From an uncultured Actinomycetota bacterium (GTDB lineage: Bacteria; Actinomycetota; UBA4738; HRBIN12): a DNA stretch of 64,000 nucleotides. Made by a program: the position numbers and the translations under genes. Below the pieces are notes generated by a model. That model ran no database searches. It saw only the letters and a list, made by a program, of their open reading frames with translations, and had not been told where the DNA came from. Below are positions 4,752 to 29,735 of the stretch, piece after piece. Location of the stretch: contig CAVXJL010000018.1 in assembly GCA_963762015.1 (NCBI GenBank), forward strand, positions 14,996 through 78,995, read 5' to 3'. Every line of letters begins with the position of its first letter. Within the stretch, counting starts at the first letter, position 1.

Positions 4752-5273
4752 ATGGACATCGAGATCGAGACGGAGAACGCCGAGCGGACACGCGAGGTCG
4801 GTCAGGCACTCGCATCGCTGCTTCAGCCGCGGGACACGGTGGTGCTGACGGGGGACCTCGGCGCCGGCAAGACCACACTCGTCCAGGGGATCGGACGCGG
4901 CCTCGGCGTGGAGGATCACGTCGCCTCCCCGACGTTCACGCTCGTTCGCGAATACTCGGGTCGCCTCGACGTGGCGCACGTCGACGTCTACCGCCTGGAG
5001 CGGGTCCAAGACGTCGTCGATCTGGCTTTGGACGAGCTAGGCGGCCCCGACCGGGTGCTCCTGGTCGAGTGGGGGGATGCCGTGTCCGACCTCCTCCCCG
5101 AGGACAGGCTCCGCGTGGAGCTCACGACGGCGCGGGCCGACGCCGACACCCGCCGGATCGTGATGGCGCCGCAGGGAGGGTCCTGGGCAGGTCGATGGGA
5201 GCGCCTGGAACACGCGCTCGAGCCGTTCCGACGCGGCAACGGTGATCGCGCGCCCGGCGGAGCAGGCCGATGA
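4752..5273 (+). CDS. tsaE: tRNA t6A37 biosynthesis ATPase TsaE
   Basis: 173 aa with Walker A GDLGAGKTTLVQGI and SPTFTLVREY, typical of TsaE/YjeE. Lies in a tsaE-tsaB-rimI-tsaD operon context. Confidence 0.85.
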   Translation: MDIEIETENAERTREVGQALASLLQPRDTVVLTGDLGAGKTTLVQGIGRGLGVEDHVASPTFTLVREYSGRLDVAHVDVYRLERVQDVVDLALDELGGPDRVLLVEWGDAVSDLLPEDRLRVELTTARADADTRRIVMAPQGGSWAGRWERLEHALEPFRRGNGDRAPGGAGR

Positions 5274-5977
5274 TCGTCGTCGGGATCGAGACGTCGACGC
5301 CGCAGACCTCCGTCGCGATCGGGACGGAGCGGGAGATGCTCGGGATGGTCTCCGTGGCGGGGAAGGCTCGGCAGGAAGCGGTGACACCTGCCCTCGACCA
5401 GCTGTGTCGCTGGACGGGGATCGAGCTGTCCCAGGTCGGCGGGATCGCGGTCGGGATCGGCCCCGGCCTGTTCACCGGTCTCCGGGTGGGCATCGAGACC
5501 GCGAAGACGCTGGCGCAGGTGCTCGCGGTGCCGATCGTCGGGATCACCAGCCTCGACGCGCTCGCCTTCTCGGTCCGCCATACCCACAAGCTGATCGTCG
5601 CGGTGATCGACGGCCGGCGAGGCGAGGTGTTCTTCGCCATCTATCGTGCGCTCCCGGGCGGCGTGGTGAGGGGGAGCGAGTACTCGGTGGGGACGCCCGA
5701 CCACCTCAGCGCCGAGCTCGAAACCCTGCCGGAGGAGGTGCTTGCGGTCGGAGACGGTGCCATCCTGTACCGGAGCCAGCTCGAGGAGTTGGGGAGCCGG
5801 GTCGAGTTCGCCTCGACGATCCGGGCGCATCCGGAGGCCGCTTCACTGGTGGAGCTCGCGGTCCCGCGGTTCCTCCGTGAGGAGCACGACCGGCTGCACG
5901 ACGTGGTGCCGATGTACCTGAGGAGATCGGATGCGGAGATCGCGTGGGACAACAGGGAGCGAAGCGCCGGCGCTTGA
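5270..5977 (+). CDS. tsaB: tRNA t6A37 biosynthesis protein TsaB
   Basis: 235 aa. MIVVGIETSTPQTSVAI...GIGPGLFTGLRVG is the Kae1/TsaD-like inactive paralogue signature. ATGA overlap with tsaE. Confidence 0.8.
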   Translation: MIVVGIETSTPQTSVAIGTEREMLGMVSVAGKARQEAVTPALDQLCRWTGIELSQVGGIAVGIGPGLFTGLRVGIETAKTLAQVLAVPIVGITSLDALAFSVRHTHKLIVAVIDGRRGEVFFAIYRALPGGVVRGSEYSVGTPDHLSAELETLPEEVLAVGDGAILYRSQLEELGSRVEFASTIRAHPEAASLVELAVPRFLREEHDRLHDVVPMYLRRSDAEIAWDNRERSAGA

Positions 5978-5987
5978 GGTCACGCGC

Positions 5988-6482
5988 ATGCGCCGGCGAC
6001 ACCTGCGCGGCGTCATGGCGATCGAGCGGCAGGTGTACGCACGACCGTGGAGTCCCAACCTCTTCGCCGCGGAGATCACCGACCCGAACAACCGTTGCTA
6101 CCTCGTGGCTCGCGTCCACAAGGAGGTCGTCGGGTACGGCGGCCTGATCTGCTACGGCGACGAGGCCCACATCACCAACGTCGCCGTGGATCCGATGCAC
6201 CAGGGTCACGGGATCGCGACACGCCTGATGGCGGAGCTGATCCCGCAAGCGATCGAGATGGGCGCGCGGGCCGTGTCCCTCGAGGTCCGGGTGACGAACT
6301 GGGGGGCCCAGCGGATCTACGCACGCTTCGGCTTCCGGCCGGTCGGGATCCGGCGGAATTACTACCAAGAGGTGAGCGAGGACGCGCTGATCATGTGGAC
6401 CGACGACGTGAGGACCGCGGCGTACCGGGGACGCCTGGACGAGATCGAGGAGACCCTTCCCCAGGGCGTGCGCCCCGCGTGA
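5988..6482 (+). CDS. rimI: ribosomal-protein-alanine N-acetyltransferase (GNAT)
   Basis: Track ORF 5931..6482 trimmed to ATG 5988, just after the tsaB stop. GNAT acetyl-CoA motif VDPMHQGHGIATRLM. Canonical position between tsaB and tsaD. Confidence 0.75.
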   Translation: MRRRHLRGVMAIERQVYARPWSPNLFAAEITDPNNRCYLVARVHKEVVGYGGLICYGDEAHITNVAVDPMHQGHGIATRLMAELIPQAIEMGARAVSLEVRVTNWGAQRIYARFGFRPVGIRRNYYQEVSEDALIMWTDDVRTAAYRGRLDEIEETLPQGVRPA

Positions 6483-7486
6483 TCACCCTCGGCATCGAGA
6501 CATCGTGCGACGAGACGGCCGTGGCGGTCGTGGAGGACACGTTCCACGTCAGGACGAACCTGATCGCTCGCCAGGAGCACCTGCACGAACGCTACGGGGG
6601 GGTCGTTCCCGAGGTCGCGGCGAGGGCGCACGTGGAGTCGTTGAACCCCCTGCTGGAGCAGGCCCTGCGAGAGGCCGACGTCTCGTTCCGGACCATCGAC
6701 GGGGTCGCCGTCACCGTTGGCCCGGGGCTCGTCGGCGCCCTCCTGGTCGGGATGGCGGCGGCGAAGGCCGTTTCCCTGGCTGCCCGGATCCCCCTGATCG
6801 GCGTGAACCATCTGGAGGGCCACATCTGGGCGAACTTCCTGGAGCACGGGACACCGGATCCTCCTTACGTGGCCCTGGTGGTCTCGGGCGGCCACACGAT
6901 GCTCGTGCACATGCCGGAGGTGCATCGATACGAGCTGCTCGGGCAGACCCTCGACGACGCGGCCGGGGAGGCATTCGACAAGGTCGCGAGACTCCTCGGC
7001 CTCGGATTCCCCGGCGGCCCCGCCCTCGACGCGATGGCGGCAGAGGGCGATCCCACCGCCATCCGGTTCCCGAGGGCGATGGAGAGCTCGGGCGATCTCG
7101 ACTTCTCGATGAGCGGGCTGAAGACGGCGGTCCTTCGATACCTGCGAGCCGAGCAGGCGGCCGGCCACGACGTCTCCCTGCCCGACGTGGCCGCGTCGTT
7201 CCAGGAAGCGATCGTGGACGTGCAGGTTTCGAAGACGATCGCGGCGGCGAAAGGTCGCGGAGTGGACACGGTCCTCCTCGGTGGCGGAGTCGTGGCGAAC
7301 ACACGCCTGCGCGACCGGATGAGCGAGGCGGGAACGTCCGAGGGTCTGCGGGTCCTCTATCCGTCGTTCGAGTTGTGCACGGACAACGCGGCCATGATCG
7401 CGGCGGTCGGAGCGGCCAGGCTCGCTCGGGGAGAACGGTCCTCGCTGGACATCGCCGCAGACCCCAACCTAAGGTTGGCGTCGTGA
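6479..7486 (+). CDS. tsaD: tRNA N6-adenosine threonylcarbamoyltransferase TsaD
   Basis: Track ORF 6047..7486 trimmed to GTG 6479 (GTGA overlap with rimI). VITLGIETSCDETAVAVV...HLEGHI...VSGGHT are TsaD/Kae1 signatures. Confidence 0.9.
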   Translation: MITLGIETSCDETAVAVVEDTFHVRTNLIARQEHLHERYGGVVPEVAARAHVESLNPLLEQALREADVSFRTIDGVAVTVGPGLVGALLVGMAAAKAVSLAARIPLIGVNHLEGHIWANFLEHGTPDPPYVALVVSGGHTMLVHMPEVHRYELLGQTLDDAAGEAFDKVARLLGLGFPGGPALDAMAAEGDPTAIRFPRAMESSGDLDFSMSGLKTAVLRYLRAEQAAGHDVSLPDVAASFQEAIVDVQVSKTIAAAKGRGVDTVLLGGGVVANTRLRDRMSEAGTSEGLRVLYPSFELCTDNAAMIAAVGAARLARGERSSLDIAADPNLRLAS

Positions 7487-8427
7487 CGTCCGTCCTGGTG
7501 ACCGGGGGCGCCGGGTTCATCGGCTCGCAACTCGGAGAACGCTTGCTCGCGGAAGGTCATCGTGTCGTGTCCGTCGACGACCTGACGACCGGGAAGATCG
7601 CGAACCTCGTCGAGGCGCGCGGCTACGGCAAGGAGTTCTCGTTCTTCAACATGGACGTGCGCGCCGACGGTCTGGCGTCGCTGTTCGAACGGCACCGGCC
7701 CGAGGTCGTGTTCCATCTCGCGGCGCAGGCGGGCGTTCGGCCATCGCTGGACGATCCGGTTCACGACGCGAGCGTCAACATCATGGGGCTGCTGAACGTG
7801 CTGGAAGCCGCCGTGCACGTCGGCGCCCGCAAGGTGATCTATGCGGCGAGCGGCGGCACGATGTATGGGGAACCCCGCCGGCTTCCTACCAAAGAGACTG
7901 CCGCGCAGGGCTCCCGGCCCCTATCTCCCTACGGCGTGTCGAAGAAGGTGGCCCTCGACTACCTGGCGTACTTCCAGCGATACCGGGGGCTGGACTACAC
8001 GGCTCTCGGGCTCGCGAACGTGTACGGACCCCGGCAGGATCCGCTCGGCGAAGCGGGTGTGGTCGCCATCTTCACGGCGAAGATGCTGACGGGCGAGGCG
8101 CCCACGATCTTCGGCGACGGCAACCAGACCCGCGACTTCGTCTTCATCGACGACACGGTGCACGCCTTCGTCCAGGCGATCGATCGGGGATCCGGCAAGC
8201 TCGTGAACATCGGCACCGGGCTGGAGACGAGCGTGAATCACATCTACAAGGTGCTCGCCGAGCTCACCGGGTTCGCGGGGGAGCCGGAGCACGCGCCCCA
8301 GTCTCAGGCGGAGCTGCGGAGGATGGCGCTGGACATCTCGGCCGCGACGTCGGCGATCGCCTGGAAACCGTGGACACACCTCGAGGACGGTCTTGCGGAG
8401 ACGGTTGCGTACCTGAAGGGGGTCTGA
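7483..8427 (+). CDS. NAD-dependent nucleotide-sugar epimerase/dehydratase (GalE-like SDR)
   Basis: Track ORF 6505..8427 trimmed to GTG 7483. Rossmann motif VLVTGGAGFIGSQL and catalytic SPYGVSKKV (YxxxK). Confidence 0.8.
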   Translation: MTSVLVTGGAGFIGSQLGERLLAEGHRVVSVDDLTTGKIANLVEARGYGKEFSFFNMDVRADGLASLFERHRPEVVFHLAAQAGVRPSLDDPVHDASVNIMGLLNVLEAAVHVGARKVIYAASGGTMYGEPRRLPTKETAAQGSRPLSPYGVSKKVALDYLAYFQRYRGLDYTALGLANVYGPRQDPLGEAGVVAIFTAKMLTGEAPTIFGDGNQTRDFVFIDDTVHAFVQAIDRGSGKLVNIGTGLETSVNHIYKVLAELTGFAGEPEHAPQSQAELRRMALDISAATSAIAWKPWTHLEDGLAETVAYLKGV

Positions 8428-8505: not shown

Positions 8506-8541
8506 GCCTGTTGAGGGAAGCGAGCGACCTGAGGAGGGTAG

Positions 8542-8703
8542 ATGACGTACGAATCCCCCCGGATCATCGATTTCGGGTCGATCCAGGCCCATACCTTCAC
8601 CAACACGGGACAGGTTCCGGGAGTTGGTCCGAAGGGCAAGGACTGGCGCGATTGCGCGTGGGACAAGTTCAACGAAGAGTCCTGCGGGGAGCACGTCTCC
8701 TGA
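8542..8703 (+). CDS. lasso peptide precursor (53 aa), not in supplied ORF track
   Basis: ATG 8542 preceded by GAGGAGGG (8531-8538); TGA at 8701-8703. Translation: MTYESPRIIDFGSIQAHTFTNTGQVPGVGPKGKDWRDCAWDKFNEESCGEHVS. The leader fits YxxPxLx3Gx5Tx. It lies directly upstream of the cyclase gene. Confidence 0.7.
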   Translation: MTYESPRIIDFGSIQAHTFTNTGQVPGVGPKGKDWRDCAWDKFNEESCGEHVS

Positions 8704-8721
8704 CGGTTCACCTTGAACGGC

Positions 8722-8751
8722 GAAAGGCGCAGCCCTGCGGCTGCGCCTTTC
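8722..8751 (+). terminator. GC-rich hairpin between precursor and cyclase (attenuator/partial terminator)
   Basis: GAAAGGCGCAGC (8722-8733), 6-nt loop, GCTGCGCCTTTC (8740-8751): a perfect 12-bp stem ending in TTTC, 19 nt after the precursor stop. Confidence 0.5.
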
Positions 8752-8785
8752 GTATGAGCTAGGTCACCCACGAGCGTCGATCGCC

Positions 8786-10567
8786 GTGGGCTCCCTCGCG
8801 CTCTTCATCGGTTCATCCGCATCCTCGGATCGGAGCACCGTCACGAGGATGCTCGAGGCCGCACCACACCGAGGGGTTCCCGGCCCTCCTGAGCGGATCG
8901 GCTGCGCCTCCCTCGGCGTGTCCCGCGCGGGGGGCCGCGATCAGGCGAGCGTCGAGAGCCATGACGGTCTCGCCGCCGCGTTCGTCGGTGTCCTCGACAA
9001 CGCCGGATCGCTCGCGGCCGAGCTCGGCCTCTCTGGGGGCCGGTCGGTGCCCTCCGCGGCGCGCATCTACCTCGAGGCCTGGCGCCGCTGGCGGGATCGG
9101 GCCCCTGCCCGACTGCGGGGACCATTCGCTGCGGTCCTGACGGATGGAGAGACCGTCCATGCCACGAGGGATCCGCTGGGGTTCCGATGTCTCTTCTTCC
9201 GCCGGGACCCGAAAGGCGTCTTCGTCGCAACCGAGTTGAAGCAGGTGATGGCGGGTTGCGAGCGACCGATGATGCCCGATCTCGACGTGATCGAGTCGAT
9301 CGTGTTCGGCGAGTACGACGACGACACACCGACCGCGATCGCCGGCTGCGAGCGCGTCCCTCGTGGGATGACGGTGCGCCTGCGGGGCTCCTCGGCCGCT
9401 CGACATCGGTACTGGGATCCGGGAGCGATCCTGGAGACGGGTCGGTACGCCGCATCCGAGCTGCCGGAACGATTCGATGACGTGATGGGTCGCGCTGCTG
9501 CGCGATCGTTGCTCGGCGACGACGTGCTCTCGCTCTCGGGCGGCACCGATTCCTCCGCCGTGGCGGCGTACGCGGCGCCTGCACATCTCGATCGGTTCGA
9601 CCGCCCACTCGCCGCCCTGTCCGTCGTGTACCCACAACTGCCCGCGGTCGATGAGCGCGAGGAGATCGAGCTCATCGCCGGGAGACTCGGGATCGAGCTG
9701 CACACCTACGAAGAGTCGGCCAAGACGCTCGACGAGGTCGACGTGTGGATGGGTGTGCTGGACGAACCGCTGCCACTCTTCTTCGTTGCGGAGTCGGCCG
9801 AGCATCTCCGACGGGCGCACGAGATGGGATATCGGAACATGCTCACCGGAGAGATGGCGGAGTGGGTCGTGGAGCGGAGGAGCTACCTGATCCCGCACTT
9901 GCTCTTGACGGGTCGGTTCGGTCCGGCGCTCGATCACCTCAGGCGCCAGCGCCGCGAGCACCGAACGTCGACACGAGGGATCGCGCGGCAGGTGGGAGCG
10001 GCGTTCGTCACGCCTCGGATGCGCAAGACGTGGGCGCGGATGCGGCCGGCGAGGATCGCGATCCCACCATGGGTGGATGAGACTCGTCTCCGCGAGGTGG
10101 AGGCTCGCTGGGCGACTCGGGCTCGGGACATGTGGCGCGGGTACCAGTCGGCGATCTTCCTCGGGCCGGATCTGCCGGCCGAGGCCGAAGACATCGTCGA
10201 AGCGGTGACCGACGTCACGGTCCGCCGGCCGTTCGCCGACCTCGACCTCGTCGAGTTCTTCCTCTCCCTCCCCGCGGAGCAGAAGTTCCCGGACACGCAT
10301 TTCAAGAGCCTGCTCCGGAGCTTCCTCCGCGGCCGGCTCCCCGATGCGTTGCTCGATCGGCCGCGGAAGGCGGTATTCAACGAAGCGGTGATGGCCCGAG
10401 CCGACCACGAGCGCCTTCGGCAACTCCTCATCGACCCTCCATATCGCTTGCGCGGGATCGACTATGGCATCTTGCGCGCGCGCCTGAACGCGGGGGACCT
10501 GGAGATCGGTGAGTACGAACGCGCGAAGAACCTCGCCGCCGTTCACGCGTACCTCGCCCGCTGGTGA
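8786..10567 (+). CDS. lasso peptide cyclase (asparagine synthetase B-like, LasC/McjC type)
   Basis: 593 aa. PP-loop ATP-pyrophosphatase motif LSLSGGTDSSAVAAYA. Asn-synthase-like architecture lacking the N-terminal Cys nucleophile. Adjacent to the precursor, B1, B2 and an ABC exporter. Confidence 0.85.
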   Translation: MGSLALFIGSSASSDRSTVTRMLEAAPHRGVPGPPERIGCASLGVSRAGGRDQASVESHDGLAAAFVGVLDNAGSLAAELGLSGGRSVPSAARIYLEAWRRWRDRAPARLRGPFAAVLTDGETVHATRDPLGFRCLFFRRDPKGVFVATELKQVMAGCERPMMPDLDVIESIVFGEYDDDTPTAIAGCERVPRGMTVRLRGSSAARHRYWDPGAILETGRYAASELPERFDDVMGRAAARSLLGDDVLSLSGGTDSSAVAAYAAPAHLDRFDRPLAALSVVYPQLPAVDEREEIELIAGRLGIELHTYEESAKTLDEVDVWMGVLDEPLPLFFVAESAEHLRRAHEMGYRNMLTGEMAEWVVERRSYLIPHLLLTGRFGPALDHLRRQRREHRTSTRGIARQVGAAFVTPRMRKTWARMRPARIAIPPWVDETRLREVEARWATRARDMWRGYQSAIFLGPDLPAEAEDIVEAVTDVTVRRPFADLDLVEFFLSLPAEQKFPDTHFKSLLRSFLRGRLPDALLDRPRKAVFNEAVMARADHERLRQLLIDPPYRLRGIDYGILRARLNAGDLEIGEYERAKNLAAVHAYLARW

Positions 10568-10604: not shown

Positions 10605-11588
10605 ATGGAACCGGTGATGACCGAGCGCAGGGACGAGGTTCCCATGGAGAGCTTTCCCGCGCTCGACGTCGTCGACGTCCACCGTCGCTTCCGTGACGTC
10701 GAGGCGCTCAAGGGCGTGACCCTCGAGGTGTGGCCCGGCGAGGTCCATGCGCTCCTCGGACCGAACGGCGCCGGGAAGACCACGTTGCTCCGGGTCCTCG
10801 TCGGTCTCCTGATCCCAGACACCGGCGACGTGGACGTCCTCGGCCAGCCGCTCGAGGTGATGACCTCCAGACGTTTCCGACGTTCCTTCGGCTTCGTCCC
10901 GTCGGGAGATCGCAGCTTCTACCTCCGGGTGAGCGGCTTGGAGAACCTCCTGTTCTTCGCGCGCCTCCACGGCCTGCCCAAGCGCACAGCGGTCACGCGA
11001 TCCCGCGAGCTCCTCTCGTTGGTCGGTCTGGAGGAGGCGGCGGGTCGCCGGGTGGGCCTGTACTCGCACGGGATGCAGAAGCGCTTGTCCGTTGCGCGGG
11101 CGCTCCTGACCGAGCCGCGGATCCTGTTCGTGGACGAGGCGACCCACGATCTCGATCCGCAAGGCGCCGAACGGATCCGAGAGCTGGTCCGTGAACAGGT
11201 TCGAGGCGGAGTGGCGGTCGTCTGGACGACGCAGCGGGTGGAGGAGATCCGCGGCTTCGCCGATCACGTCACCCTCCTACAGGCGGGAACGGTCAGGTTC
11301 CAGGGGACGGTCCCGCAGCTCCTCGCTTCGGTCCCCCGACGACGCTTCCTCGTGCGCGTGGGGCCAGGGAAGGATCCCGCGGTGATGAGGCGCGCGGTGG
11401 CCGGACTCGCCGAGCTCCGCGAGGGAAGCGATCCCGAACACGTCCTTCTCGGGATCACCGAAGGGGAGACCCTCGGGCGGGCGATCGCGGCGCTCGAGCG
11501 TGCGGATGTTCCGATCCTCGCCTGCACCGAGGAGGGCTCCGGCGTCGAGGAGGCCTTCCTCTTCCTGACGCGGGAGGATCCGCCCTGA
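10605..11588 (+). CDS. ABC transporter ATP-binding protein (lasso exporter/immunity candidate)
   Basis: Track ORF 10509..11588 trimmed to ATG 10605, downstream of the cyclase stop. Walker A GPNGAGKTT, signature-like YSHGMQKRLSVA, Walker B ILFVDEATHDLD. Confidence 0.85.
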   Translation: MEPVMTERRDEVPMESFPALDVVDVHRRFRDVEALKGVTLEVWPGEVHALLGPNGAGKTTLLRVLVGLLIPDTGDVDVLGQPLEVMTSRRFRRSFGFVPSGDRSFYLRVSGLENLLFFARLHGLPKRTAVTRSRELLSLVGLEEAAGRRVGLYSHGMQKRLSVARALLTEPRILFVDEATHDLDPQGAERIRELVREQVRGGVAVVWTTQRVEEIRGFADHVTLLQAGTVRFQGTVPQLLASVPRRRFLVRVGPGKDPAVMRRAVAGLAELREGSDPEHVLLGITEGETLGRAIAALERADVPILACTEEGSGVEEAFLFLTREDPP

Positions 11589-11704
11589 CCAGACCGCTCG
11601 ACACCGCCGCGCCGTCGTCCAGCGCACTCCGGGAAGAGGGTAGGAAGCTCTTCGCGTTCCTCCGCCGTGACGTCCTCGTCGCCTGGAGCTATCGCCTCCC
11701 GTTC

Positions 11705-12442
11705 GTGACGGACTGGGTCGCGATGGTGTTGCAGGCGGTCGTCTTCGGGTTCGTGGGAAAGCTGATCCCTCCCTCCTCCCTGCCGCGCTTCGGCGGTGAG
11801 GCGATCGACTATCTGGAGTTCGTTGCCGTAGGGATCGCGATCTCCTCGTTCCTCGCAGTAGGGCTCTCGCGACTCATGACCGTGATCCGGCAGGAGCAGG
11901 TGCAGGGGACCCTTGAGGCCCTCCTGCTCACGCCGACCGCCTGGTCCACGATCGAGATCGGCTCCGCGTTCTACGACATCCTCTACGTGCCGGTGCGAAC
12001 GGCGGTCTTCCTGGGTCTCACGGCGCTCCTCTTCGATGCGAACTATCGCCTCGGGGGCGTGGCACCCGCAGCTGCGGTACTCGTCGCATTCATCCCGTTC
12101 GTATGGGGACTCGGGGTGATCTCGGCCGCTGCGACCCTTACGTTTCGCCGTGGAGCGGGAGGTGTGGGGTTCCTCGTCTCGATCGCGACGGTCGGATCGG
12201 GTGCGTACTTCCCGCTTTCGGTGCTCCCGGGCTGGGTGCAGGCGGCCGCGGCGTACAACCCCGTCGCGATCGCGGTGACCGCGATGCGCGAAGCCCTCCT
12301 CGGGGGTTCGACGTGGGTCGACGTCTGGCCTTCCATCGTGCGGCTGATCCCGATGTCGGTACTGGCCATGCTCCTTGGGGCCGTCGCCTTCCGGGCCGCC
12401 ATCGCCCGGGAGCGTCGGCGCGGCACGCTTGGGCTCTACTGA
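11705..12442 (+). CDS. ABC-2 type transporter permease
   Basis: 245 aa with multiple TM segments. The in-frame upstream sequence (from about 11585) reads ...KLFAFLRRDVLVAWSYRLPF, which looks like the true N-terminus but has no ATG/GTG/TTG, so the start is uncertain. Confidence 0.7.
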   Translation: MTDWVAMVLQAVVFGFVGKLIPPSSLPRFGGEAIDYLEFVAVGIAISSFLAVGLSRLMTVIRQEQVQGTLEALLLTPTAWSTIEIGSAFYDILYVPVRTAVFLGLTALLFDANYRLGGVAPAAAVLVAFIPFVWGLGVISAAATLTFRRGAGGVGFLVSIATVGSGAYFPLSVLPGWVQAAAAYNPVAIAVTAMREALLGGSTWVDVWPSIVRLIPMSVLAMLLGAVAFRAAIARERRRGTLGLY

Positions 12443-13614
12443 GCGTCCCGTCTTGTCGTTGGCGATCGCCTCTCCTCGCGAGCCACCCGTCGAAGGAACG
12501 TTCGCTCATCCTCCCTCGTTCCCGAAGAGGTGAAGATCGCACCCGGCGTGGATCCCCGGTGGGTCATCGACCGCAACCGTCGGGAGGCGCGGTTGAGCAT
12601 CGCGCGCGCGGTCGCGACTCCCGAGTCGCGCGTGAGCTGCGCCCAGAACACCGATGGGCTCTCGCCGCCGACGGACCGTTCGGTCGGAAACCGCCGATCG
12701 AGCTCGTCGCTGAGCCGATGCCACACACGCGAGGCGAAGAGCGCGTCGAGTACGCCCTCCGGGACCGGCGCTCCGAGCGATCGACGGGCTCGATCGAGCG
12801 TGATGGCGATGCTCCGTCCCGCCTTCCAAGCTCGGGCGCGGCGTATCACCTCTTCCCATGGTGGCTGATCGACGACGACCGCGCGCTCGATGTCCTTGAG
12901 CCAGATCAGGCGGTCGCCGCCGGAAAGGGCGGCGTGTAGGGCCACGTGGAGCAGCGTGTCCACCGGGTCGAGGGTCGGGAGCGAGCGGCCCCCGACGTCC
13001 ACCTCCCGCGACCGCTCGAACAGGTCGTCCGTCGTGATCGCGAAGCCATCGCGGACGTTCTCGCGGTTCAGGAGATGCCAGTGGAGATCGGCGAGCGTGC
13101 CCATCGGCAGCTGGAGATGGAGCTGGCCACGTGTGTCCGCCCGGGTGAGCGCCCAGTTCCGGTCTAAGAGGAGGGAGCCTCCTTCCTTGAGGGCGTCGAC
13201 GGCACGCTCGAACGAGCCGGGCGGGACCAGGAGGTCGAGATCTTCGTACGTGCGCAGATCCGGCGAGGGATAGAGGTGTTCGGAGAGCACCGGCCCCTTC
13301 ACGACGAGGAACGGGATGGCGTCCGCGGACAAGCACTCACGCACGCCATCGAGGTCGGCCAGTACCCGCAGGTGGGCGGCCGTTCTCGTCGCGTGCGTGC
13401 GCTCGAGCGACGCGACGGCCTCATCGCTCACGGACACCCGGGACGTCCGCACGGCCGCCGCGAGGAAGGGGACCACCCGATGCCGTGCCGCGTGCTGAGC
13501 GAGCTGCGCCAGTTCGTCGTCGTCGAACTGGTCGAGCACACGTCGTCGGATCTCCTGCGGACGGTCCGCGGTACAGACCACCAGCGCCGCCCCAAGCGCC
13601 TGCCGGCTCTTCAT
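12436..13614 (-). CDS. nucleotidyltransferase family protein (NTP_transf_5 / PF14907-like)
   Basis: 392 aa. FLVVKGPVL...YEDLDLLVPP...DLHWHL pattern typical of the uncharacterised nucleotidyltransferase family found in kinase-type lasso clusters. ATGA overlap with B2. Confidence 0.7.
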   Translation of the reverse strand: MKSRQALGAALVVCTADRPQEIRRRVLDQFDDDELAQLAQHAARHRVVPFLAAAVRTSRVSVSDEAVASLERTHATRTAAHLRVLADLDGVRECLSADAIPFLVVKGPVLSEHLYPSPDLRTYEDLDLLVPPGSFERAVDALKEGGSLLLDRNWALTRADTRGQLHLQLPMGTLADLHWHLLNRENVRDGFAITTDDLFERSREVDVGGRSLPTLDPVDTLLHVALHAALSGGDRLIWLKDIERAVVVDQPPWEEVIRRARAWKAGRSIAITLDRARRSLGAPVPEGVLDALFASRVWHRLSDELDRRFPTERSVGGESPSVFWAQLTRDSGVATARAMLNRASRRLRSMTHRGSTPGAIFTSSGTREDERTFLRRVAREERRSPTTRRDAQ

Positions 13615-14018
13615 CCGAACCTCGCCAGCTCCTCATGCGACCCTTTGCCCGGCGGCGGCCCGACGTCGACCCGGTCGATCTCGATCCACGCATGCGCCTC
13701 GTGGTCGCGAGGATCGTGAGGCAGCCCGAGCACGAGCTCCGCCGAGTCTCCCTGCGCCCGAAGGAGTCGGAAGAGCACGAGTGCGTTGACGAGACACCTC
13801 GGTCGGAACGGGCCGAGGTGCAAGGTTCCGTGGACGATCCGAGACAACCGTCGGGGCTCGACCCTTCCCGATCGATGGCCGTCCTCACCCCCGAAGCTCT
13901 CCACGACCGTCGGCAACGGGGCTCGTCGGAGCCGCCAGTGAACGAGGAGGAACGTGCCGCCGATCCGTGCTGCGAGGCGTGCTTTCTTCGCGAGCGGCAG
14001 CGCGCCTCCGGGACTCAC
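13611..14018 (-). CDS. lasso peptide leader peptidase B2 (transglutaminase-like Cys protease)
   Basis: Track ORF 13611..14180 trimmed to GTG 14018 (GTGA overlap with the kinase stop). Catalytic-type motifs RPRCLVNALVLFRLL and HEAHAWIEID. Confidence 0.8.
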   Translation of the reverse strand: MSPGGALPLAKKARLAARIGGTFLLVHWRLRRAPLPTVVESFGGEDGHRSGRVEPRRLSRIVHGTLHLGPFRPRCLVNALVLFRLLRAQGDSAELVLGLPHDPRDHEAHAWIEIDRVDVGPPPGKGSHEELARFG

Positions 14019-14941
14019 CGGGCCTGCACCCGCTCGAGCTCGTAGATGACCGCGTCGAGGGCGTCGTAGCGCATGGGCCGATGTAGGTTCCAGATCGGCA
14101 CGCGCGCTGCGAGCTGGGTGACCCCCTCGAAACATCTCCTCCGATCCTCGTCGGTCGGGGTGCTGAAGGACAAGGCCCACAGGTCGGGGATGGCCTCCTC
14201 GGGAGAGACCCGTTCGAGGCGAGGATCCCCCGAGTTCGCCTCCCGGAGCAGCACGATCGCGTCGGCAGGGACCGGATCCCCGGTCCCCCGGAGCGTCGGT
14301 TCGATAGCGAGATGGACCCGCTCATCGACATGCAGAACGCGCCCGCCGGGAACTTCCGGCGATCGATCGGGGTCGCGTCGGATCCGGAGCATCGCTGGTC
14401 CCGGAACCACGTCGATCCCTTCATCGGAACGGCGAAGGCATGTGGAGTCCTCGCTCAACAGGCGATATCCCGCGCTCACGAGCGCGGCCGCGAGGGTCGT
14501 CTTGCCGAAGCGGCCGGGTGCTCCGAACACGACCGCGCGCCCACCGCTCTCGACGCTCGCGGCATGGAGCGAATGATCTCCTCGCGAGAGGAAACACAGG
14601 ACCGTCGGGATCCCCCAGAGCCGTTCCTCTCTCAGCAAGGGAGGCGCGTCACGAGGAACCTCGATGGAACCGGCGACTGGATCGATGTGGAAGGAGCCGA
14701 TATCGGTCACCCACAGACGCCATCGGTGATCCTCTCGGAACAGGCGCGAGGTGAAGGGGCGGTCGGGCCGGGGGAGCCACTCCCGGACCGGTTCGCCGCT
14801 CTCGCCGGCATCGGTGCGCCGGGTCTCGGCAACCTCGAGCACGCCGGTCGCTCCCCCTTCGCGAAGGTATTCGAAGGCGAGGTCGGACCGCAGCTCGTAG
14901 CCGAAGCAGACGTCGTATGCCATCCCGGTTCCGGGCGCCAT
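14015..14941 (-). CDS. HPr kinase/phosphorylase-related kinase (lasso precursor Ser kinase candidate)
   Basis: Track ORF 14015..15124 trimmed to ATG 14941 (alternative ATG 14923). P-loop region RAVVFGAPGRFGKTTLAAALVSAGYRLLSEDS resembles the HprK C-terminal domain. Confidence 0.7.
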   Translation of the reverse strand: MAPGTGMAYDVCFGYELRSDLAFEYLREGGATGVLEVAETRRTDAGESGEPVREWLPRPDRPFTSRLFREDHRWRLWVTDIGSFHIDPVAGSIEVPRDAPPLLREERLWGIPTVLCFLSRGDHSLHAASVESGGRAVVFGAPGRFGKTTLAAALVSAGYRLLSEDSTCLRRSDEGIDVVPGPAMLRIRRDPDRSPEVPGGRVLHVDERVHLAIEPTLRGTGDPVPADAIVLLREANSGDPRLERVSPEEAIPDLWALSFSTPTDEDRRRCFEGVTQLAARVPIWNLHRPMRYDALDAVIYELERVQAR

Positions 14942-15110: not shown

Positions 15111-15449
15111 ATGATCGAGAGCACGGAGCTGATCGTCCGGAACCCTCGGGTGGAGTACCGGAAGCTCGCCGATGGGGGCGGCGCCGTCCTCCTGAATCTC
15201 GATACGGCCGCCTACCATGGGCTGAACCAGACCGGGTCGGTGATCTGGGAGACGGTGGGGGACGGCAAACCGATGGGCGAGGTCGTTCCTCAGGTCGCCG
15301 CGATGTTCGAGGATGCGCCCCCCGCGCTGGCGCTGGAAGTGACCGGGTTCATCGAAGATCTCGTCGAGCGAGATCTCCTCCGCGTCCACCACGTCGATCC
15401 GCAGGCGTCGACCATGCCCGGGAGCGTCGAGCGAGGTTCCTCGCGATGA
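15111..15449 (+). CDS. PqqD-family RiPP recognition element (lasso B1)
   Basis: Track ORF 14994..15449 trimmed to ATG 15111. VEYRKLADGGGAVLLNLDTAAYHGLNQTGSVIWETV...FIEDLVERDLL is the PqqD/RRE pattern. Transcribed divergently from the K-B2-NTase operon. Confidence 0.8.
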   Translation: MIESTELIVRNPRVEYRKLADGGGAVLLNLDTAAYHGLNQTGSVIWETVGDGKPMGEVVPQVAAMFEDAPPALALEVTGFIEDLVERDLLRVHHVDPQASTMPGSVERGSSR

Positions 15450-15452
15450 CGC

Positions 15453-17075
15453 GTGGCAGGTGGTGTTCGGATCACCCTCGGTCCCGGACGTCGGGGGCAC
15501 ACGACGGGATCCACTGACCCACCGGCCGAGAAGGGCCCCGCAGGCAGACGACATGGCCTCGCGCGCACCTCCAGCGGGATCGCGGCGCTCGCAGCAGCCG
15601 GCGTCCTCACCGGCTTCGCCGTCGACGCGACGATCGCCGCTCTCTTCGGTGCGAGCGGGCGGACCGACGCGTTCTTCATCGCGGCCACGATCCCGTTCGC
15701 ACTCGCCTCCGTTCTCCTCGCATCCGCGAACCAGGCACTCGTGCCATTGATCGATACGTGGTTCCGCGAGCACGGATCCGATGGGGCGCGGGATCGTGTC
15801 GAGGGATTGCTCGGGACGTCGTTGGTCATCGCGACCGCCGTCGCCACCCTCGGCGTCCTCCTCTCGTCGGTCCTCCCGTCGATCCTGGCCCCGGGCGCCT
15901 CGTCCGCGACGAAGGCGTCCGCCTCTCTGATCACGGCTCTGCTGTTCTTCACCGTGATCACCCGTGTCGGCGCCGAGGTGATCCGCGCGCTCCTGAACGC
16001 GCGATCCTCCTTCGCGGCTCCTGCCTCGATGCCGATCGTCGAGAACCTCGCGGTCCTCGCGACGACGCTGCTCCTGGCGGGCCGTCTCGGCGTGCCTGCC
16101 GTGGCGATCGGCTACGTCGTCGGAGGGATCCTCCAGTTGGGATACATGTACGGGGTCGCGCGAACCCGAGGGCTTCGCCTCCGGCCGCGGGTTCGCTTCC
16201 GCGATCCGGAGATCCGGGTCGCGTTCCGACTCCTCCGGCTCCCGCTCGCGGGGACGGGGCTCAACATGTTCGCCCGTGCCGTCGAGCGATTCCTTGCGTC
16301 GTTCCTGCCTCCCGGCTCCATCACGATCCTGAACTACGCCTGGGTCGTGGTGAACAGCCTCGGCGGGGCGATCTTCTTCCGGAGCATCGTGGTCGCACTC
16401 CTGCCACGCCTGTCGGAAGCTCGTCACGATGACGATGTCAGCCGTCGGATCGTCGGAGACGGGGTCAGGTTGATGGCGCTGATCTCGATCCCGCTCACCG
16501 GGATCGTCATCGTGCTCGCGGAACCGCTGGTGAGTCTCTTCTTCCAGCGCGGAGCTTTCAACGCTCCGTCGGCGGCTCTGCTCGGGTCGGTCCTGGCGAT
16601 CTACGCGCTCCAGTTCCCACTCGACGCGATCACGCGTGTCTTCCAATCGTTCTGGTACTCACGACTCAACACCGTCGTCCCGTTCCACAACGTTGCCCTC
16701 GGTGTGGGGCTGGATATCGCGCTCGCGGCAGCCCTCGTCTGGTCCTTCGGGATCCGGGGCCTTGCGCTGGCCTACGTGCTCTCGAGCATCGGCAACCTCC
16801 TTCACGGCTCCCTCACGGTGGATCGGCGGATCCATCTCCCCATCGCTCCGCTCCTTCGCATCCTCGGAAAGATCGTCATCGCCTCTGGGCTCGCGGCCGC
16901 GGCCGCGGCGGTGACCCTCGCGACGCTTCCCGCATCCAGGGGGTTGATCCAGCGATCGGTCGCTGTGGCGCTTCCTGGGGCGGTGGCGTGCGCGGTTCTG
17001 GTGCTCGCCCTGCTGGCACTCCGCGTTCGGATCTGGAGATCGATGCTGAGTCAGGATGAGGCGCCGCCGCACTGA
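15453..17075 (+). CDS. MOP-superfamily flippase (MurJ/MviN-like)
   Basis: 540 aa, polytopic. N-terminal FGASGRTDAFFIAATIPFAL is the MurJ signature. Starts 3 nt after the B1 stop; the true start may be further downstream. Confidence 0.7.
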   Translation: MAGGVRITLGPGRRGHTTGSTDPPAEKGPAGRRHGLARTSSGIAALAAAGVLTGFAVDATIAALFGASGRTDAFFIAATIPFALASVLLASANQALVPLIDTWFREHGSDGARDRVEGLLGTSLVIATAVATLGVLLSSVLPSILAPGASSATKASASLITALLFFTVITRVGAEVIRALLNARSSFAAPASMPIVENLAVLATTLLLAGRLGVPAVAIGYVVGGILQLGYMYGVARTRGLRLRPRVRFRDPEIRVAFRLLRLPLAGTGLNMFARAVERFLASFLPPGSITILNYAWVVVNSLGGAIFFRSIVVALLPRLSEARHDDDVSRRIVGDGVRLMALISIPLTGIVIVLAEPLVSLFFQRGAFNAPSAALLGSVLAIYALQFPLDAITRVFQSFWYSRLNTVVPFHNVALGVGLDIALAAALVWSFGIRGLALAYVLSSIGNLLHGSLTVDRRIHLPIAPLLRILGKIVIASGLAAAAAAVTLATLPASRGLIQRSVAVALPGAVACAVLVLALLALRVRIWRSMLSQDEAPPH

Positions 17076-17126: not shown

Positions 17127-18089
17127 ATGGCCGATCACCGCGATCATGAGACCGAGCCGGACCCGGCATCCACCCCCGAATTGCGCTGGCAACTCTTCCG
17201 GGTGCGTCGTCACGTCGGATGGGTAAGGACCCAAGGCCTGCGACGGCTCATCGAGGAGGATCAGCTCGACCCCTTCGCACGGATCCCCGTCGCGATCCGG
17301 CGAGCACGGTGGCGGCTGGCGCACGATCATCGGCCGAACGCGGTGCCGGTCTTCCTCGTGGGGCTCCAGAGATCCGGTACGAACATGCTGACGAGGGGGC
17401 TGGAACGCGCACCGGAGTTCGAGGTCCACAACGAGAACGACCGCAGCGCGTTCACGCGGTTCCGCCTGCGGGAAGAGCCGGTGATCCGCACGATCGTCGA
17501 GGGAAGCAAGCACGCGTTCGTGCTCTTCAAGCCTCTCTGCGATTCCCACCGCACCGCTGAGCTCCTCGACGCGCTCACGACTCCGAGCCGGGGTCTCGCG
17601 ATCTGGGCATACCGCGGCTATCGAGGCCGCGTTCGGTCGAGCGTCGCCAAGTTCGGTGACTCGAACCGGCGGGCGCTCCGGCGGATCGCTGCGGGGAACG
17701 GGTCTCACCTCTGGCAGGCCGGGGGCCTCAGCGAGAAGAGTCTCGCGTTGATCCGGACCTTCGACTACGACAGGATGACGCCGGAGTCGGCCGCGGCGCT
17801 GTTCTGGTTCGTGAGGAATTCGTTGTTTTTCGAGCTGGCCCTCGACGGTCGCTCGGACGTGGCGCTGGCGTCGTACGAGGCGACGATCGAAGCGCCCGAG
17901 GCCTCGATGCGTTCCCTCTGCGCCTTCGTCGGGCTGCCCTATAGGGACGTGCTGATCGAAGGGATCGAGCGCCGTGATCCCGGTGACCCGGGCGTCGTCA
18001 TCGACGGGCGGATCAGAGAGCGGTGCGAGGGCCTCCAATCCGCCCTCGACGCGGCGATGGCTCGCCGCACGATCCATCCCGACGGGTAG
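17127..18089 (+). CDS. sulfotransferase family protein
   Basis: 320 aa. PAPS 5'-phosphosulfate-binding-loop-like VFLVGLQRSGTNMLTRGL near the N-terminus. Size and layout match PF13469-type sulfotransferases. Confidence 0.6.
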   Translation: MADHRDHETEPDPASTPELRWQLFRVRRHVGWVRTQGLRRLIEEDQLDPFARIPVAIRRARWRLAHDHRPNAVPVFLVGLQRSGTNMLTRGLERAPEFEVHNENDRSAFTRFRLREEPVIRTIVEGSKHAFVLFKPLCDSHRTAELLDALTTPSRGLAIWAYRGYRGRVRSSVAKFGDSNRRALRRIAAGNGSHLWQAGGLSEKSLALIRTFDYDRMTPESAAALFWFVRNSLFFELALDGRSDVALASYEATIEAPEASMRSLCAFVGLPYRDVLIEGIERRDPGDPGVVIDGRIRERCEGLQSALDAAMARRTIHPDG

Positions 18090-20438: not shown

Positions 20439-20631
20439 TCGACCATTTCGTCATCCGGCCTAAGCCGAACGGGGGGTGGATGTGTAGGATGGGGCCCTCA
20501 CCCAGATGGAGGACAGACGTTGATCCCCCCTCTCTCAGGATCCATCGAGTCCCTGTCTTGCGTGGAGGGGTGTCTACTCGTGCCGCAATGGGCAAGAGCC
20601 GTCGGTCCAGGTCAACTCGGATCATCGGAGC

Positions 20632-21537
20632 ATGCAAAGGAGGGTGCGTTCCTTGGCGTCGGTCCCCCCCGCCTCCGCTCCGGCAGAGGAACCTGAGCAG
20701 CCAACAGACGATGCTCCCGCCCCTTCACCGGATCCCGAAGAGGTGCATCAAAGCGATATCCGCCTAGCGGACGAAGGCGAGAGCGCCCGAGGACCGGTCC
20801 TCGACCTCACGGACGCCACCCGCCCGATGGTCATCGACCTCGTTCGCCCGGAGGTCGCACCACCGGATGTGCCAGTTGACCTGGAGCGGAGGGTTGAGCG
20901 ACTCGACGCTGTCGGTCTGCTCGCCGCGCGGCCTTGGCAATTAGCTGTGAAGCGCCTCCTCGACATCGTGGGGAGCCTCACGCTGCTGATCGTGTTATCG
21001 CCGTTGATGCTCGTGATCGCGATCGCGATCGCACTCACGTCTCCCGGGCCGGTGATCTACGCGCAACGCAGGATCGGGGAGGGGGGACATCCGTTCACCA
21101 TGTACAAGTTCCGCTCGATGGTCCGCGACGCACACGATCTCCGGCACCTTCACGCGCATCGCAATCGACACACGATCGGCCCCGTCTTCAAGGTTCCGGA
21201 CGACCCCAGGATCACTCCTGTCGGGAAGGTCATCCGACGCTTGAGCCTCGACGAGCTGCCACAACTGATGAACGTCCTTCGCGGAGACATGAGCCTCGTA
21301 GGCCCCCGCCCCGCGCTCCCGGAGGAGTTCGCACTGTGCAGCTCAGATGCTCGCCAGCGCACGCTCGTGGCGCCCGGGCTCACGTGCATCTGGCAGGTGA
21401 GCGGTCGGTCGGATGTGGATTTCCTCCGATGGGTCGACATGGACCTCGAGTACATCCGGACATGGACGCTCCGCCTCGATCTGCTCCTCCTGATCCGCAC
21501 CATCCCGGCCGTCATCCGCGGTGACGGTGCGTACTGA
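20632..21537 (+). CDS. undecaprenyl-phosphate sugar phosphotransferase (bacterial sugar transferase, WbaP/ExoY family)
   Basis: 301 aa. LKRLLDIVGSLTLLIVLSP...GPVIYAQRRIG...FTMYKFRSM...DELPQLMNVLRGDMSLVGPRP are the PF02397 signatures. An alternative in-frame TTG start at 20653 follows AAGGAGG. Confidence 0.85.
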   Translation: MQRRVRSLASVPPASAPAEEPEQPTDDAPAPSPDPEEVHQSDIRLADEGESARGPVLDLTDATRPMVIDLVRPEVAPPDVPVDLERRVERLDAVGLLAARPWQLAVKRLLDIVGSLTLLIVLSPLMLVIAIAIALTSPGPVIYAQRRIGEGGHPFTMYKFRSMVRDAHDLRHLHAHRNRHTIGPVFKVPDDPRITPVGKVIRRLSLDELPQLMNVLRGDMSLVGPRPALPEEFALCSSDARQRTLVAPGLTCIWQVSGRSDVDFLRWVDMDLEYIRTWTLRLDLLLLIRTIPAVIRGDGAY

Positions 21538-21545
21538 GGGATGAC

Positions 21546-27627: not shown

Positions 27628-27629
27628 TC

Positions 27630-29720: not shown

Positions 29721-29735
29721 GCCGGGACTGAGAGG

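Follow-up and report, generated by a model that had tools for sequence, protein, structure and literature searches.

Lasso peptides are defined in the literature by a ring of 7-9 residues (PMC9266682), closed on an Asp or Glu at core position 7, 8 or 9. No natural lasso ring larger than 9 residues is known, and changing ring size by one residue usually cripples production (PMC9266682; PMC13352647). Among the described systems closest to the locus reported here is the psm cluster of the Firmicutes member Bacillus pseudomycoides (Zyubko et al. 2019, PMC6993621), which encodes a precursor (A), a cyclase (C), an HprK-like kinase (K), split B1 and B2 proteins, an NTP-transferase (N) and an ABC transporter. 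The pseudomycoidin precursor ends in Ser, its ring is placed by similarity to paeninodin between the N-terminal Ala and an internal Asp, and bulky Ser modifications were proposed to help keep the tail threaded. In the related paeninodin-type systems, reported from Firmicutes and Proteobacteria, a kinase acts on the precursor, the C-terminal Ser is conserved, and NTP-transferase and sulfotransferase genes were noted in the clusters (PMC9266682; PMC8498205); those peptides obey the 7-9 rule and have no disulfides. BsfA of Bradymonas sediminis (Duan et al. 2023, PMC10368454) is a kinase-associated precursor whose core was defined from the Y-17/P-14/L-12 register and which is phosphorylated on an internal Ser; it changes only the -2 residue (to Ile) and keeps Gly1-Asp8. 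Metanodin, from a soil metagenome, has an unusual ring-forming residue (Asn) at position 1, with no unusual ring size reported (Negri et al. 2025, PMC12670498). Finally, disulfides reinforce the fold of lasso peptides of classes I, III and IV (PMC9266682), among which siamycin/aborycin, BI-32169 and LP2006 appear to have rings of 8-9 residues and about 17-21 residues in total.

We analysed a 64,000-nucleotide stretch of DNA (hereafter the window; contig CAVXJL010000018.1 of assembly GCA_963762015.1, positions 14,996 to 78,995) from an uncultured Actinomycetota bacterium. It contains a psm/pade-type split-B lasso cluster whose 53-residue precursor, MTYESPRIIDFGSIQAHTFTNTGQVPGVGPKGKDWRDCAWDKFNEESCGEHVS, keeps Thr at -2 but has its first acidic residue at core position 15. 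In contrast to pseudomycoidin, its 34-residue core begins with Thr and contains two Cys and an internal conserved Ser.

A split-B lasso cluster and its precursor

To define the gene set surrounding the precursor, we compared the predicted proteins with Pfam, NCBIfam and PDB sequences (Table 1). The assignment of the kinase is inconclusive: its NCBIfam score is far below the cut-off, it has no Pfam hit, its best PDB hits, to HPr kinases, are weak, and a homologue at L011 (one of the related loci, numbered here with the prefix L) carries a weak ScmC hit. A PDB sequence search found no hit for the cyclase. Homologues of the sulfotransferase, at 52-65% identity, lie inside or next to the distant clusters L005-7, L038, L048, L061 and L125, and we consider this gene a probable ninth cluster member, although a MurJ-like gene separates it from B1 in the window.

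Table 1. Features of the lasso cluster, in window coordinates
Feature	Position	Strand	Remarks
Shine-Dalgarno-like stretch (GAGGAGGG)	8531-8538		Precedes the ATG of A
Precursor gene (A)	8542-8703	+	53 aa; 24 homologues at 62-98% identity; 77 hits in a profile search; exact sequence on 38 public contigs, always annotated 'hypothetical protein'
Leader, residues 1-19 (MTYESPRIIDFGSIQAHTF)	8542-8598	+	Predicted B1-binding and B2-recognition element; predicted scissile bond F19|T20
Gly/Pro-rich N-region, T20-D34 (TNTGQVPGVGPKGKD)	8599-8643	+	Proposed expanded ring; spacer (T20-P26) plus 8-mer ring (G27-D34) on a rival reading
D34 codon	8641-8643	+	Most likely isopeptide acceptor
C38 to C48	8653-8685	+	Predicted disulfide pair enclosing C-x-x-D41-K-F-x-E45-x-S47-C
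D41 codon	8662-8664	+	The 'anchor'; alternative acceptor (T20-D41 22-mer or D34-D41 8-mer)
S47 codon	8680-8682	+	Candidate phosphorylation site, E-x-S motif
S53 codon	8698-8700		C-terminal Ser, candidate phosphorylation site
Stop codon of A	8701-8703
RNA hairpin between A and C	8718-8756	+	Likely partial terminator or stabiliser (inferred)
Asparagine-synthetase-like macrolactam cyclase (C)	8786-10567	+	Pfam Asn_synthase 3.8e-28 and GATase_7; NCBIfam lasso cyclase NF033535 at 3.6e-31, below its cut-off; homologue in 33 of 35 long family loci
ABC exporter	10605-12442	+	ATPase about 10605-11588 (ORF opens at 10509); ABC-2 permease 11705-12442
NTP_transf_5 nucleotidyltransferase (N), PsmN-like	12436-13614	-	Pfam PF14907 at 1.8e-40; abuts B2; role of PsmN from PMC6993621 and PMC9266682
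Transglutaminase-like leader peptidase (B2)	13611-14180	-	NF033537 lasso_biosyn_B2 at 46.8 bits, cut-off 33; maximal ORF, true start probably downstream
Candidate HprK-related kinase (K)	14015-14941	-	TIGR04352 HprK_rel_A at 1.6e-14, below its cut-off; best PDB hits HPr kinases, E = 0.2; ORF extends to 15124, likely start M62; homologue in 25 of 35 long loci
PqqD-family RRE (B1)	15111-15449	+	Pfam PqqD 2.5e-10; lasso PqqD chaperone models at 6e-8 and 3e-7, below their cut-offs; ORF opens at 14994
Sulfotransferase	17127-18089	+	Pfam Sulfotransfer_3; such genes reported in paeninodin-type clusters (PMC8498205)

To determine if this ORF is the substrate of the cluster, we examined its conservation and genomic context. 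It sits directly upstream of the cyclase here and in 131 of 133 related loci scanned (120 of which were retrieved with the leader pattern itself), 15 residues are invariant among the 25 closest sequences, and no other leader-bearing ORF exists in the window. These observations refute the possibility that this is a chance ORF or not the substrate, for which we found no support beyond the mismatch between leader and core.

A canonical leader register and a displaced first acid

If cleavage follows F19, residues Y3, P6, I8, G12 and T18 fall at -17, -14, -12, -8 and -2, in the register used to define cores in the literature (PMC10368454). To test if this match is fortuitous, we aligned 57 profile-search hits, in which no residue was forced, and observed that G12, T18 and D41 are invariant. 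We collected further loci from metagenomes with a degenerate DNA pattern for the leader, and obtained 191 distinct homologous precursors in all. As this pattern forces P, I/V, D, F/Y, G, S, I, H, T and F, conservation of those residues in the 120 loci L014-L133 follows from the search itself; however, Y-17 (85%, plus F 10%), E-16 (73%) and Met at -19 (65%), which the searches did not constrain, are conserved in 109 non-redundant sequences. In this set, information content is above 4 bits at -3 to -1 (the HTF motif, ending at F19) and falls to about 1 bit from +1. Loci with unrelated cores (L020, L023, L032, L043 and L128) share the same leader, and no other conserved T-x-G pair exists. Thus, cleavage at F19|T20 is the expected event.

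The original prediction held that this register and an acceptor at position 7-9 cannot both apply, and that an unusual spacer, additional N-terminal trimming or a non-canonical ring would be required. Our data confirm the mismatch: the sequence following F19, TNTGQVPGVGPKGKD, contains no D/E before D34, and only 49 of 191 family cores (31 of 109 non-redundant) have any D/E at positions 7-9. Position 1 is also atypical, being Thr here and T in 32%, D in 10% and G in 7% of the family, rather than the usual Gly, Ala, Ser or Cys, but this is a soft criterion given exceptions such as Asn1 of metanodin and, apparently, Trp1 of fusilassin. The original prediction further proposed that a canonical ring is possible only from G27 (GVGPKGKD, 8 residues) or G29 (GPKGKDWRD, 9 residues). 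The second is rejected because D37 is not conserved even among the 24 closest homologues, and the restriction holds only for Gly starts, as D34-D41 is also an 8-residue span between two conserved positions.

Evidence for the ring and its rivals across the family

To identify the likely acceptor, we compared cores across the family relative to D41, the only acidic residue invariant across the superfamily (hereafter the anchor). D34 lies 7 residues before the anchor, and an acid occurs at anchor-7 or -8 in 118 of 178 family cores (147 if -6 and -9 are also allowed). In 25 short members the same Asp is at core position 7 ('DNPGKGD') or 9 ('VTGGTPxKD'), which makes them canonical lasso precursors. 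The HTF-to-Asp distance takes values of 7, 9, 10, 11, 12, 13, 14, 15, 16 and on to 25, and is never below 7, the smallest known ring size. The acceptor is not uniform, however, as 44 of 191 cores have no Asp at that position and the relatives P0032 and P0038 have Asn in place of D34.

We next asked if the segment following HTF is retained in the mature peptide. The basic Cys pair of the family sits at anchor -3/+7, and the number of Cys after HTF is even in 190 of 191 cores. The parity of N-region Cys matches that of the remaining Cys in 95 of 96 non-redundant cores (Fisher p = 6e-25), and a Cys at +1 to +3 after HTF co-occurs with a Cys at anchor+5 in 20 of 21 cores, against 2 of 75 without it (p = 2e-17). 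These statistics are inflated by shared ancestry even after 70% filtering, and the subfamily of the window has no Cys in the N-region, so that the argument for retention reaches it only by homology. The partner positions +1, +3 and +5 suggest one face of an extended, ring-contacting strand, as in class I/III ring-tail disulfides. Furthermore, clusters with a 7-residue segment (L048, L125) and with 13-16-residue segments (L005, L061, the window) have the same gene set with no added peptidase; a second protease such as a prolyl oligopeptidase was not found within about 15 kb, nor in L005, L048 or L061. Cys129 and His163 of B2 are invariant across subfamilies with N-regions of 7, 11, 13, 15 and 16 residues.

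An unlikely but not negligible alternative is that TNTGQVP is a discarded linker, removed either because B2 cuts 7 residues downstream of the T-x motif or because a housekeeping peptidase trims the peptide after F19|T20 cleavage, leaving a canonical G27-D34 ring. In the 25 closest sequences F19, N21, V25, P26, G27, G29, P30, G32, K33 and D34 are invariant, indels occur only in residues 20-25, and GxGPxGKD never changes length, which is exactly how a fixed 8-mer ring preceded by a spacer would look; the variable positions 28 and 31 would fall at ring positions 2 and 5. Gly occurs 6-8 residues before the Asp in 39 of 52 non-redundant long members (75%), against about 48% expected by chance, and V25, at -2 in this reading, is isosteric with Thr, with Ile/Val(-2) occurring in kinase-associated precursors (PMC10368454). 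However, this model ignores the conserved T(-2) register and requires cleavage after the invariant P26 or trimming through a Val-Pro bond, and Pro at P1 and X-Pro bonds would generally be expected to be poor substrates for most endopeptidases and aminopeptidases. The analogous cut in sister subfamilies would discard a Cys that covaries with a tail Cys in 24 of 52 non-redundant long members, and the TRC...PPKD and ARAQIP...NKQGD subfamilies often lack a small residue at the required position. In P0038, which keeps VPGVGPKGK, the upstream Cys8 has a tail partner at anchor+1, so there the segment upstream of VPG is retained. Cleavage before the semi-conserved Gly at +4 (HTFxxx|G) was rejected, as D/E is not enriched at +10 to +12 and the covarying Cys at +3 would be lost, and a double-glycine, PCAT-type cut was rejected because the transporter is DrrA/B-type with no peptidase domain hit.

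An option missed by the original prediction, which we consider doubtful, is a core of D34-S53 with a D34-D41 ring (DWRDCAWD) and a C38(ring)-C48(tail) disulfide as in class III, preceded by an unusually long leader cut after the conserved Lys. This model uses the only invariant acid, yields a normal lasso size of 20 aa, and also explains subfamilies lacking D(-7), such as K|GCxxxCHxD and HK|GFxNCRxE. The spacing from position -7/-8 to D41 is nearly constant at 8-9 residues, giving a D, G, S, A or C start in 169 of 178 cores, most often preceded by Lys, and Lys lies at -10 to -6 in 175 of 178 cores. Against this, it discards the covarying N-region cysteines, gives no reason why the HTF-to-Asp distance is never below 7, leaves the invariant T(-2) without its known role, and needs a second, Lys/Gly-specific cleavage with no Thr/Ile/Val at -2 and no protease to perform it; Asp at ring position 1 does not appear to have been reported.

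Equally doubtful is the absence of a lasso-type N-terminal macrolactam, with the cyclase either linking a Lys side chain (K33 or K31) to D41 and leaving T20-G32 as a free N-terminal arm, or the product being a linear or disulfide-only, phospho/glyco/sulfo-decorated peptide. The Lys is more conserved than the Asp at anchor-7 (175 against 118 of 178), no single alpha-amine-to-acid rule fits all subfamilies, the cyclase scores below the curated cut-off, and in the psm system the product made without K and N is not a threaded lasso (PMC6993621). However, the conserved B2 Cys/His imply that a new alpha-amine is needed, the Lys position floats between -8, -9 and -10, short members fit the ordinary lasso rule exactly, and no lasso-type cyclase seems to be known to use a Lys side chain.

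Proposed pathway and implications

From these data we tentatively propose that B1 binds the YxxPxI leader; that the candidate kinase, and then the NTP-transferase and sulfotransferase, decorate a tail Ser (S47 or S53); that B2 cuts at F19|T20; and that the cyclase adenylates a distal Asp, most likely D34, and joins it to the alpha-amine of T20, giving a 15-residue macrolactam. After export, C38-C48 would close a second loop on the tail that, together with the bulky Ser modification, would hold any threaded fold that a Phe-sized plug could not hold in so wide a ring. Spacer removal and trimming are disfavoured and a non-canonical ring is favoured among the options of the original prediction, although this reading remains less than an even proposition. 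The kinase target is inferred by analogy with PadeK, PsmK and BsfK; S47 is nearly invariant in the unforced alignment, the C-terminal residue is Ser in 104 of 191 cores, and the C-terminus is SP or TP in 43 of 191. An AlphaFold2 model of the precursor built with the 57-sequence alignment (mean pLDDT 67.5, about 54 over residues 21-30) shows only a small beta-bridge between 39-40 and 46-47, at low confidence, and cannot place the ring.

It is possible, though not the likelier outcome, that this peptide belongs to a large, unannotated superfamily of lasso-like RiPPs whose cyclases close macrolactams of 7 to about 25 residues on a canonical leader, held on the tail by ring-tail and tail-tail disulfides and by a phospho/glyco/sulfo-Ser plug and not by steric fit alone. 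The cores are found mostly in soil metagenomes, with a median length of 35 aa, and all nine genome-collection loci come from Actinomycetota MAGs. As the 7-9 rule also appears to be built into precursor-scoring heuristics, such peptides would be scored poorly or missed; full-text searches for strings from the core and leader found no papers, and a search for natural expanded rings found nothing relevant. If these cyclases do close 10-25-residue rings, they would be natural catalysts for the ring and loop expansion that engineering has failed to achieve (PMC13352647), and the family would show how disulfides and bulky Ser modifications can replace steric plugs. If instead a spacer is removed or the ring is D34-D41, the family would reveal a lasso protease whose cut site is uncoupled from the Thr(-2) register. 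N-region lengths of 7, 9, 10, 11, 12, 13, 15 and 16 occur on one conserved leader with one conserved enzyme set.

A general link of these clusters to polysaccharide loci is not supported, as only 3-5 of 35 long loci share those genes. A consensus terminator and promoter scan found nothing, but folding revealed a strong hairpin between A and C (minimum free energy -37.4 kcal/mol, z = -5.8, with 0 of 200 shuffles folding as well), which the terminator scan did not list because there is no T-run, and which we infer likely raises the precursor:enzyme transcript ratio.

The precursor gene and its neighborhood

To determine what is encoded at this locus, we translated the open reading frame and examined its flanks. 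The ORF encodes MTYESPRIIDFGSIQAHTFTNTGQVPGVGPKGKDWRDCAWDKFNEESCGEHVS, and a GAGGAGGG Shine-Dalgarno-like stretch precedes its ATG. The original prediction, which concerned the region from codon T20 to the stop, held that the leader register and the position of the first acidic residue disagree, and we found its arithmetic to be correct. If cleavage follows F19, residues Y3/P6/I8/G12/T18 sit at -17/-14/-12/-8/-2, the next 14 residues contain no D/E, and D34 is core position 15. A very stable hairpin (-37.4 kcal/mol, z = -5.8), which has no T-run, lies between the precursor and cyclase genes and is probably an attenuator or stabilizer that sets the A:C transcript ratio.

Features of the precursor locus (window coordinates)
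Feature	Position	Strand	Remarks
tsaE, tsaB, a GNAT gene (rimI-like) and tsaD, followed by an NAD-dependent sugar epimerase	4752-8427		Directly upstream of the precursor gene; left border of the cluster
Precursor gene (A)	8542-8703	+	
Codon T20 to stop	8599-8703	+	Region of the original prediction
Precursor residues K31/K33	8632-8640		
Precursor residue S47	8680-8682		
Hairpin	8718-8756	+	Follows the precursor stop codon
Asn-synthetase-like cyclase (C)	8786-10567	+	
ABC exporter	about 10605-12442	+	DrrA/B-type
NTP_transf_5 protein (N)	12436-13614	-	
B2 peptidase	13611-14180	-	Passes the curated lasso_biosyn_B2 cut-off
HprK-related kinase (K)	14015-14941	-	Weak match
B1	15111-15449		PqqD-type; divergent from the minus-strand genes
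MurJ-like flippase gene	15453-17075		Inserted between B1 and the sulfotransferase
Sulfotransferase	17127-18089	+	Likely ninth cluster gene
Polysaccharide-type locus	18150-31013		Wzz, Bac_transf, two more sulfotransferases, three NHL-repeat proteins and GHL15

The genes that surround the precursor form a complete, tailoring-rich lasso cluster. Although the kinase match is weak, this is the gene set of the pseudomycoidin psm cluster and of paeninodin-type clusters (C, A, K, B1, B2, N, D, sometimes with a sulfotransferase) (PMC6993621; PMC8498205; PMC9266682), which were described from Firmicutes and Proteobacteria. The nearest genome records to this window are instead uncultured Actinomycetota MAGs, with cyclase identity of 79-93%, while more distant ones are Gaiellales (41-42%). 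The sulfotransferase is likely also a member of the cluster, as homologs at 52-65% identity are embedded in or adjacent to distant clusters of the same precursor family (loci L005-7, L038, L048, L061 and L125), and this implies possible sulfation of the peptide or of its sugar. A polysaccharide-type locus lies downstream of our cluster, and loci L134 and L005 also have glycosyltransferase, Wzy, PMT or GHL15 neighbors. However, only 3-5 of 35 long loci share these genes by tblastn, so a general link is not supported.

Conservation of the leader and variation in the segment that follows

To ask if the ORF belongs to a family, we performed a word-indexed search, which returned 24 homologs at 62-98% identity. 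A profile of these sequences, run against 1.84 billion representatives, returned 77 hits, most of which are peptides of 45-75 aa. Six of the hits (P0028, P0029, P0049, P0061, P0095 and P0098) are long proteins (269-1435 aa) that match the profile in many short stretches, and these are probably Gly/Pro-rich repeat proteins that hit the VPGxGPxGK segment rather than true relatives. In total, we obtained 191 distinct cores. Wherever enough contig is present, the peptide gene lies next to the cyclase; among 35 loci of at least 9 kb, the cyclase is found in 33, the kinase in 25 and B1 in 22. Every named public copy is annotated as a hypothetical protein, and no paper in the literature collection searched contains these sequences.

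We next tested whether the match to the lasso leader motif could be fortuitous. In a 57-sequence alignment of unforced hits, G12, T18 and D41 are invariant, and P6, D10, I14, H17, F19 and S47 are nearly so. In 109 non-redundant sequences, Y-17 (85%, plus 10% F), E-16 (73%) and the initiator Met at -19 (65%) are conserved although no search constrained them, and information content falls from above 4 bits at -3 to -1 to about 1 bit at +1 and beyond. Several loci (L020, L023, L032, L043 and L128) carry the same leader on unrelated cores, which is the usual signature of a leader-core junction. One of these, the short contig L032, carries two precursor genes on the minus strand (around 845 and 347) with the family leader but unrelated short acidic cores (FDVLAFAGSSGVQVPPDDGGVAF and GDLLSLFQGSSADGGDNDAAG), neither of which has an acid at positions 7-9. 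The same Y-17/P-14/L-12 register has been used to define cores in the literature (PMC10368454), and no second conserved T-x-G pair exists. We conclude that the leader register is not fortuitous, so the grounds on which the original prediction would have failed do not apply.

The mismatch between leader register and acceptor position is family-wide, as only 49 of 191 cores (31 of 109 non-redundant) have any D/E at positions 7-9. When we aligned the cores on the invariant Asp of the D-K-F-x-E-x-S motif (D41 in our peptide), we observed an Asp 7 residues upstream (D34) in about two thirds of cores, a basic Cys pair at -3 and +7 (C38 and C48), and a Gly/Pro-rich segment of variable length between HTF and the upstream Asp. 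A Lys lies at -10 to -6 in 175 of 178 cores and is thus more conserved than the putative acceptor Asp (118 of 178); its role is unexplained, but it could be a cyclase or kinase recognition element, a cleavage site or a nucleophile. The segment from HTF to the upstream Asp is 7 (15 cores, DNPGKGD), 9 (10 cores, VTGGTPxKD), 10, 11, 12, 13 (Gaiellales type), 14, 15 (27 cores, the type of our peptide), 16 (TRC...PPKD) and up to 25 residues long, and is never below 7. The core in locus L085 reads VTGGTPHKDT and then diverges into unrelated sequence, probably through a frameshift that reflects either a pseudogene or an assembly error. The 7- and 9-residue members are perfectly canonical lasso precursors whose acceptor Asp is the homolog of D34, and our peptide therefore looks like a canonical precursor whose putative ring segment has been lengthened. 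In contrast, 44 of 191 cores (in loci L012, L014, L069 and others) lack the Asp at -7 altogether. Examples are TTPGGxxKGCxxxCHxDKF with a CxxxC pair, MPTPP...HKGFxNCRxE..., and QTPGxGTKS..., in which both D1 and D7 of the 7-mer type are replaced. The acceptor in these subfamilies, if any, must be the invariant anchor acid.

Fate of the variable segment and candidate rings

To assess if the additional residues are discarded or kept, we analyzed the distribution of cysteines, which answers this question for several sister subfamilies. The Cys count after HTF is even in 190 of 191 cores, and a Cys in the variable segment always comes with an extra Cys at +1, +3 or +5 of the tail motif. In two-Cys TRC members, the -3/+7 pair is replaced by a pair between the third residue after HTF and +5. 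In the 70%-filtered set, parity of N-region Cys matches parity of the rest in 95 of 96 cores (p = 6e-25), and a Cys at +1 to +3 goes with a Cys at +5 in 20 of 21 cores, against 2 of 75 otherwise (p = 2e-17). These p-values overstate independence because the sequences are related, but the pattern recurs in several distinct subfamilies. As disulfides matter only in the exported product, residues as close as three positions after HTF are part of the mature peptide in these subfamilies. This argues against a discarded spacer and against a core that begins at D34, although our peptide's own subfamily has no N-region Cys, so the argument reaches it only by homology. The pattern fits ring-tail bridges as in class I/III lasso peptides, and the +1/+3/+5 periodicity suggests one face of an extended strand lying against the N-region.

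We then examined the two canonical rings that had been put forward in the original prediction. The G29-D37 ring fails, because residue 37 is D, T, V, G, N or P among the closest homologs. The G27-D34 ring remains possible and has real support: G27 and D34 are invariant, the variable positions fall at ring positions 2 and 5, all indels among close relatives lie in residues 20-25 (profile hits P0009, P0010 and P0026 and loci L061 and L088), and Gly is enriched 6-8 residues before the Asp in long members (75% against about 48% by chance). However, for this ring the scissile bond would follow an invariant Pro, or trimming would have to pass a Val-Pro bond. In addition, the outgroup P0038 (a profile hit encoded at locus L134) keeps VPGVGPKGK but has Asn for D34, an upstream Cys8 paired with the tail, and a canonical D9, and the analogous cut would discard a covarying Cys in 24 of 52 long non-redundant members. 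No additional peptidase is encoded near the cluster here or in L005, L048 or L061, clusters with 7-residue and 13-16-residue segments have the same gene set, and B2 keeps its Cys/His in all subfamilies.

The original prediction did not list a further option, a ring from D34 to D41 (DWRDCAWD), which is an 8-residue span between a conserved Asp and the only invariant Asp. The analogous span is 8-9 residues, with a D, G, S, A or C start, in 169 of 178 cores, and is usually preceded by Lys. Such a ring would give a normal 20-aa lasso with a class-III-like disulfide, and would also cover subfamilies that lack the Asp at -7. Nevertheless, it conflicts with the Cys covariation, with the lower bound of 7 on the N-region, with the conserved T(-2) register and with the absence of a suitable protease, and we consider it unlikely. 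A side-chain (Lys) isopeptide, or the lack of any macrolactam, is similarly improbable but cannot be excluded.

Proposed maturation of the peptide

In gene content and leader logic, this system works like the psm and pade systems. It differs in that the peptide lacks the acceptor at positions 7-9 that defines lasso peptides and does not satisfy the softer criterion of Gly1, so we do not classify it as an ordinary lasso peptide. The T20-D34, G27-D34 and D34-D41 models are separated by predicted product masses of 3712.64, 3015.30 and 2391.93 Da.

From the gene set, the leader register, the missing acid, the family-wide length series and the Cys covariation, we tentatively propose the following pathway, in which the cleavage site, acceptor, topology and modification sites are inferred. 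B1 would bind the leader; the kinase, and then the NTP-transferase and sulfotransferase, would modify a tail Ser; and B2 would cut at F19|T20. The cyclase would then join T20 to D34 to give a 15-residue Gly/Pro-rich macrolactam, with T20-D41 as a less likely variant, and C38-C48 would close after export. The strongest objection to this proposal is that no natural ring above 9 residues is known and that lasso cyclases tolerate ring-size changes poorly (PMC9266682; PMC13352647). Candidates for the modified Ser are S47 and S53, the C-terminal Ser as in paeninodin and pseudomycoidin. As S47, within the D-K-F-x-E-x-S motif, is near-invariant across the superfamily, whereas the C-terminal residue is Ser in only 54% of cores, the kinase target may be internal, as for BsfK Ser3, rather than C-terminal.
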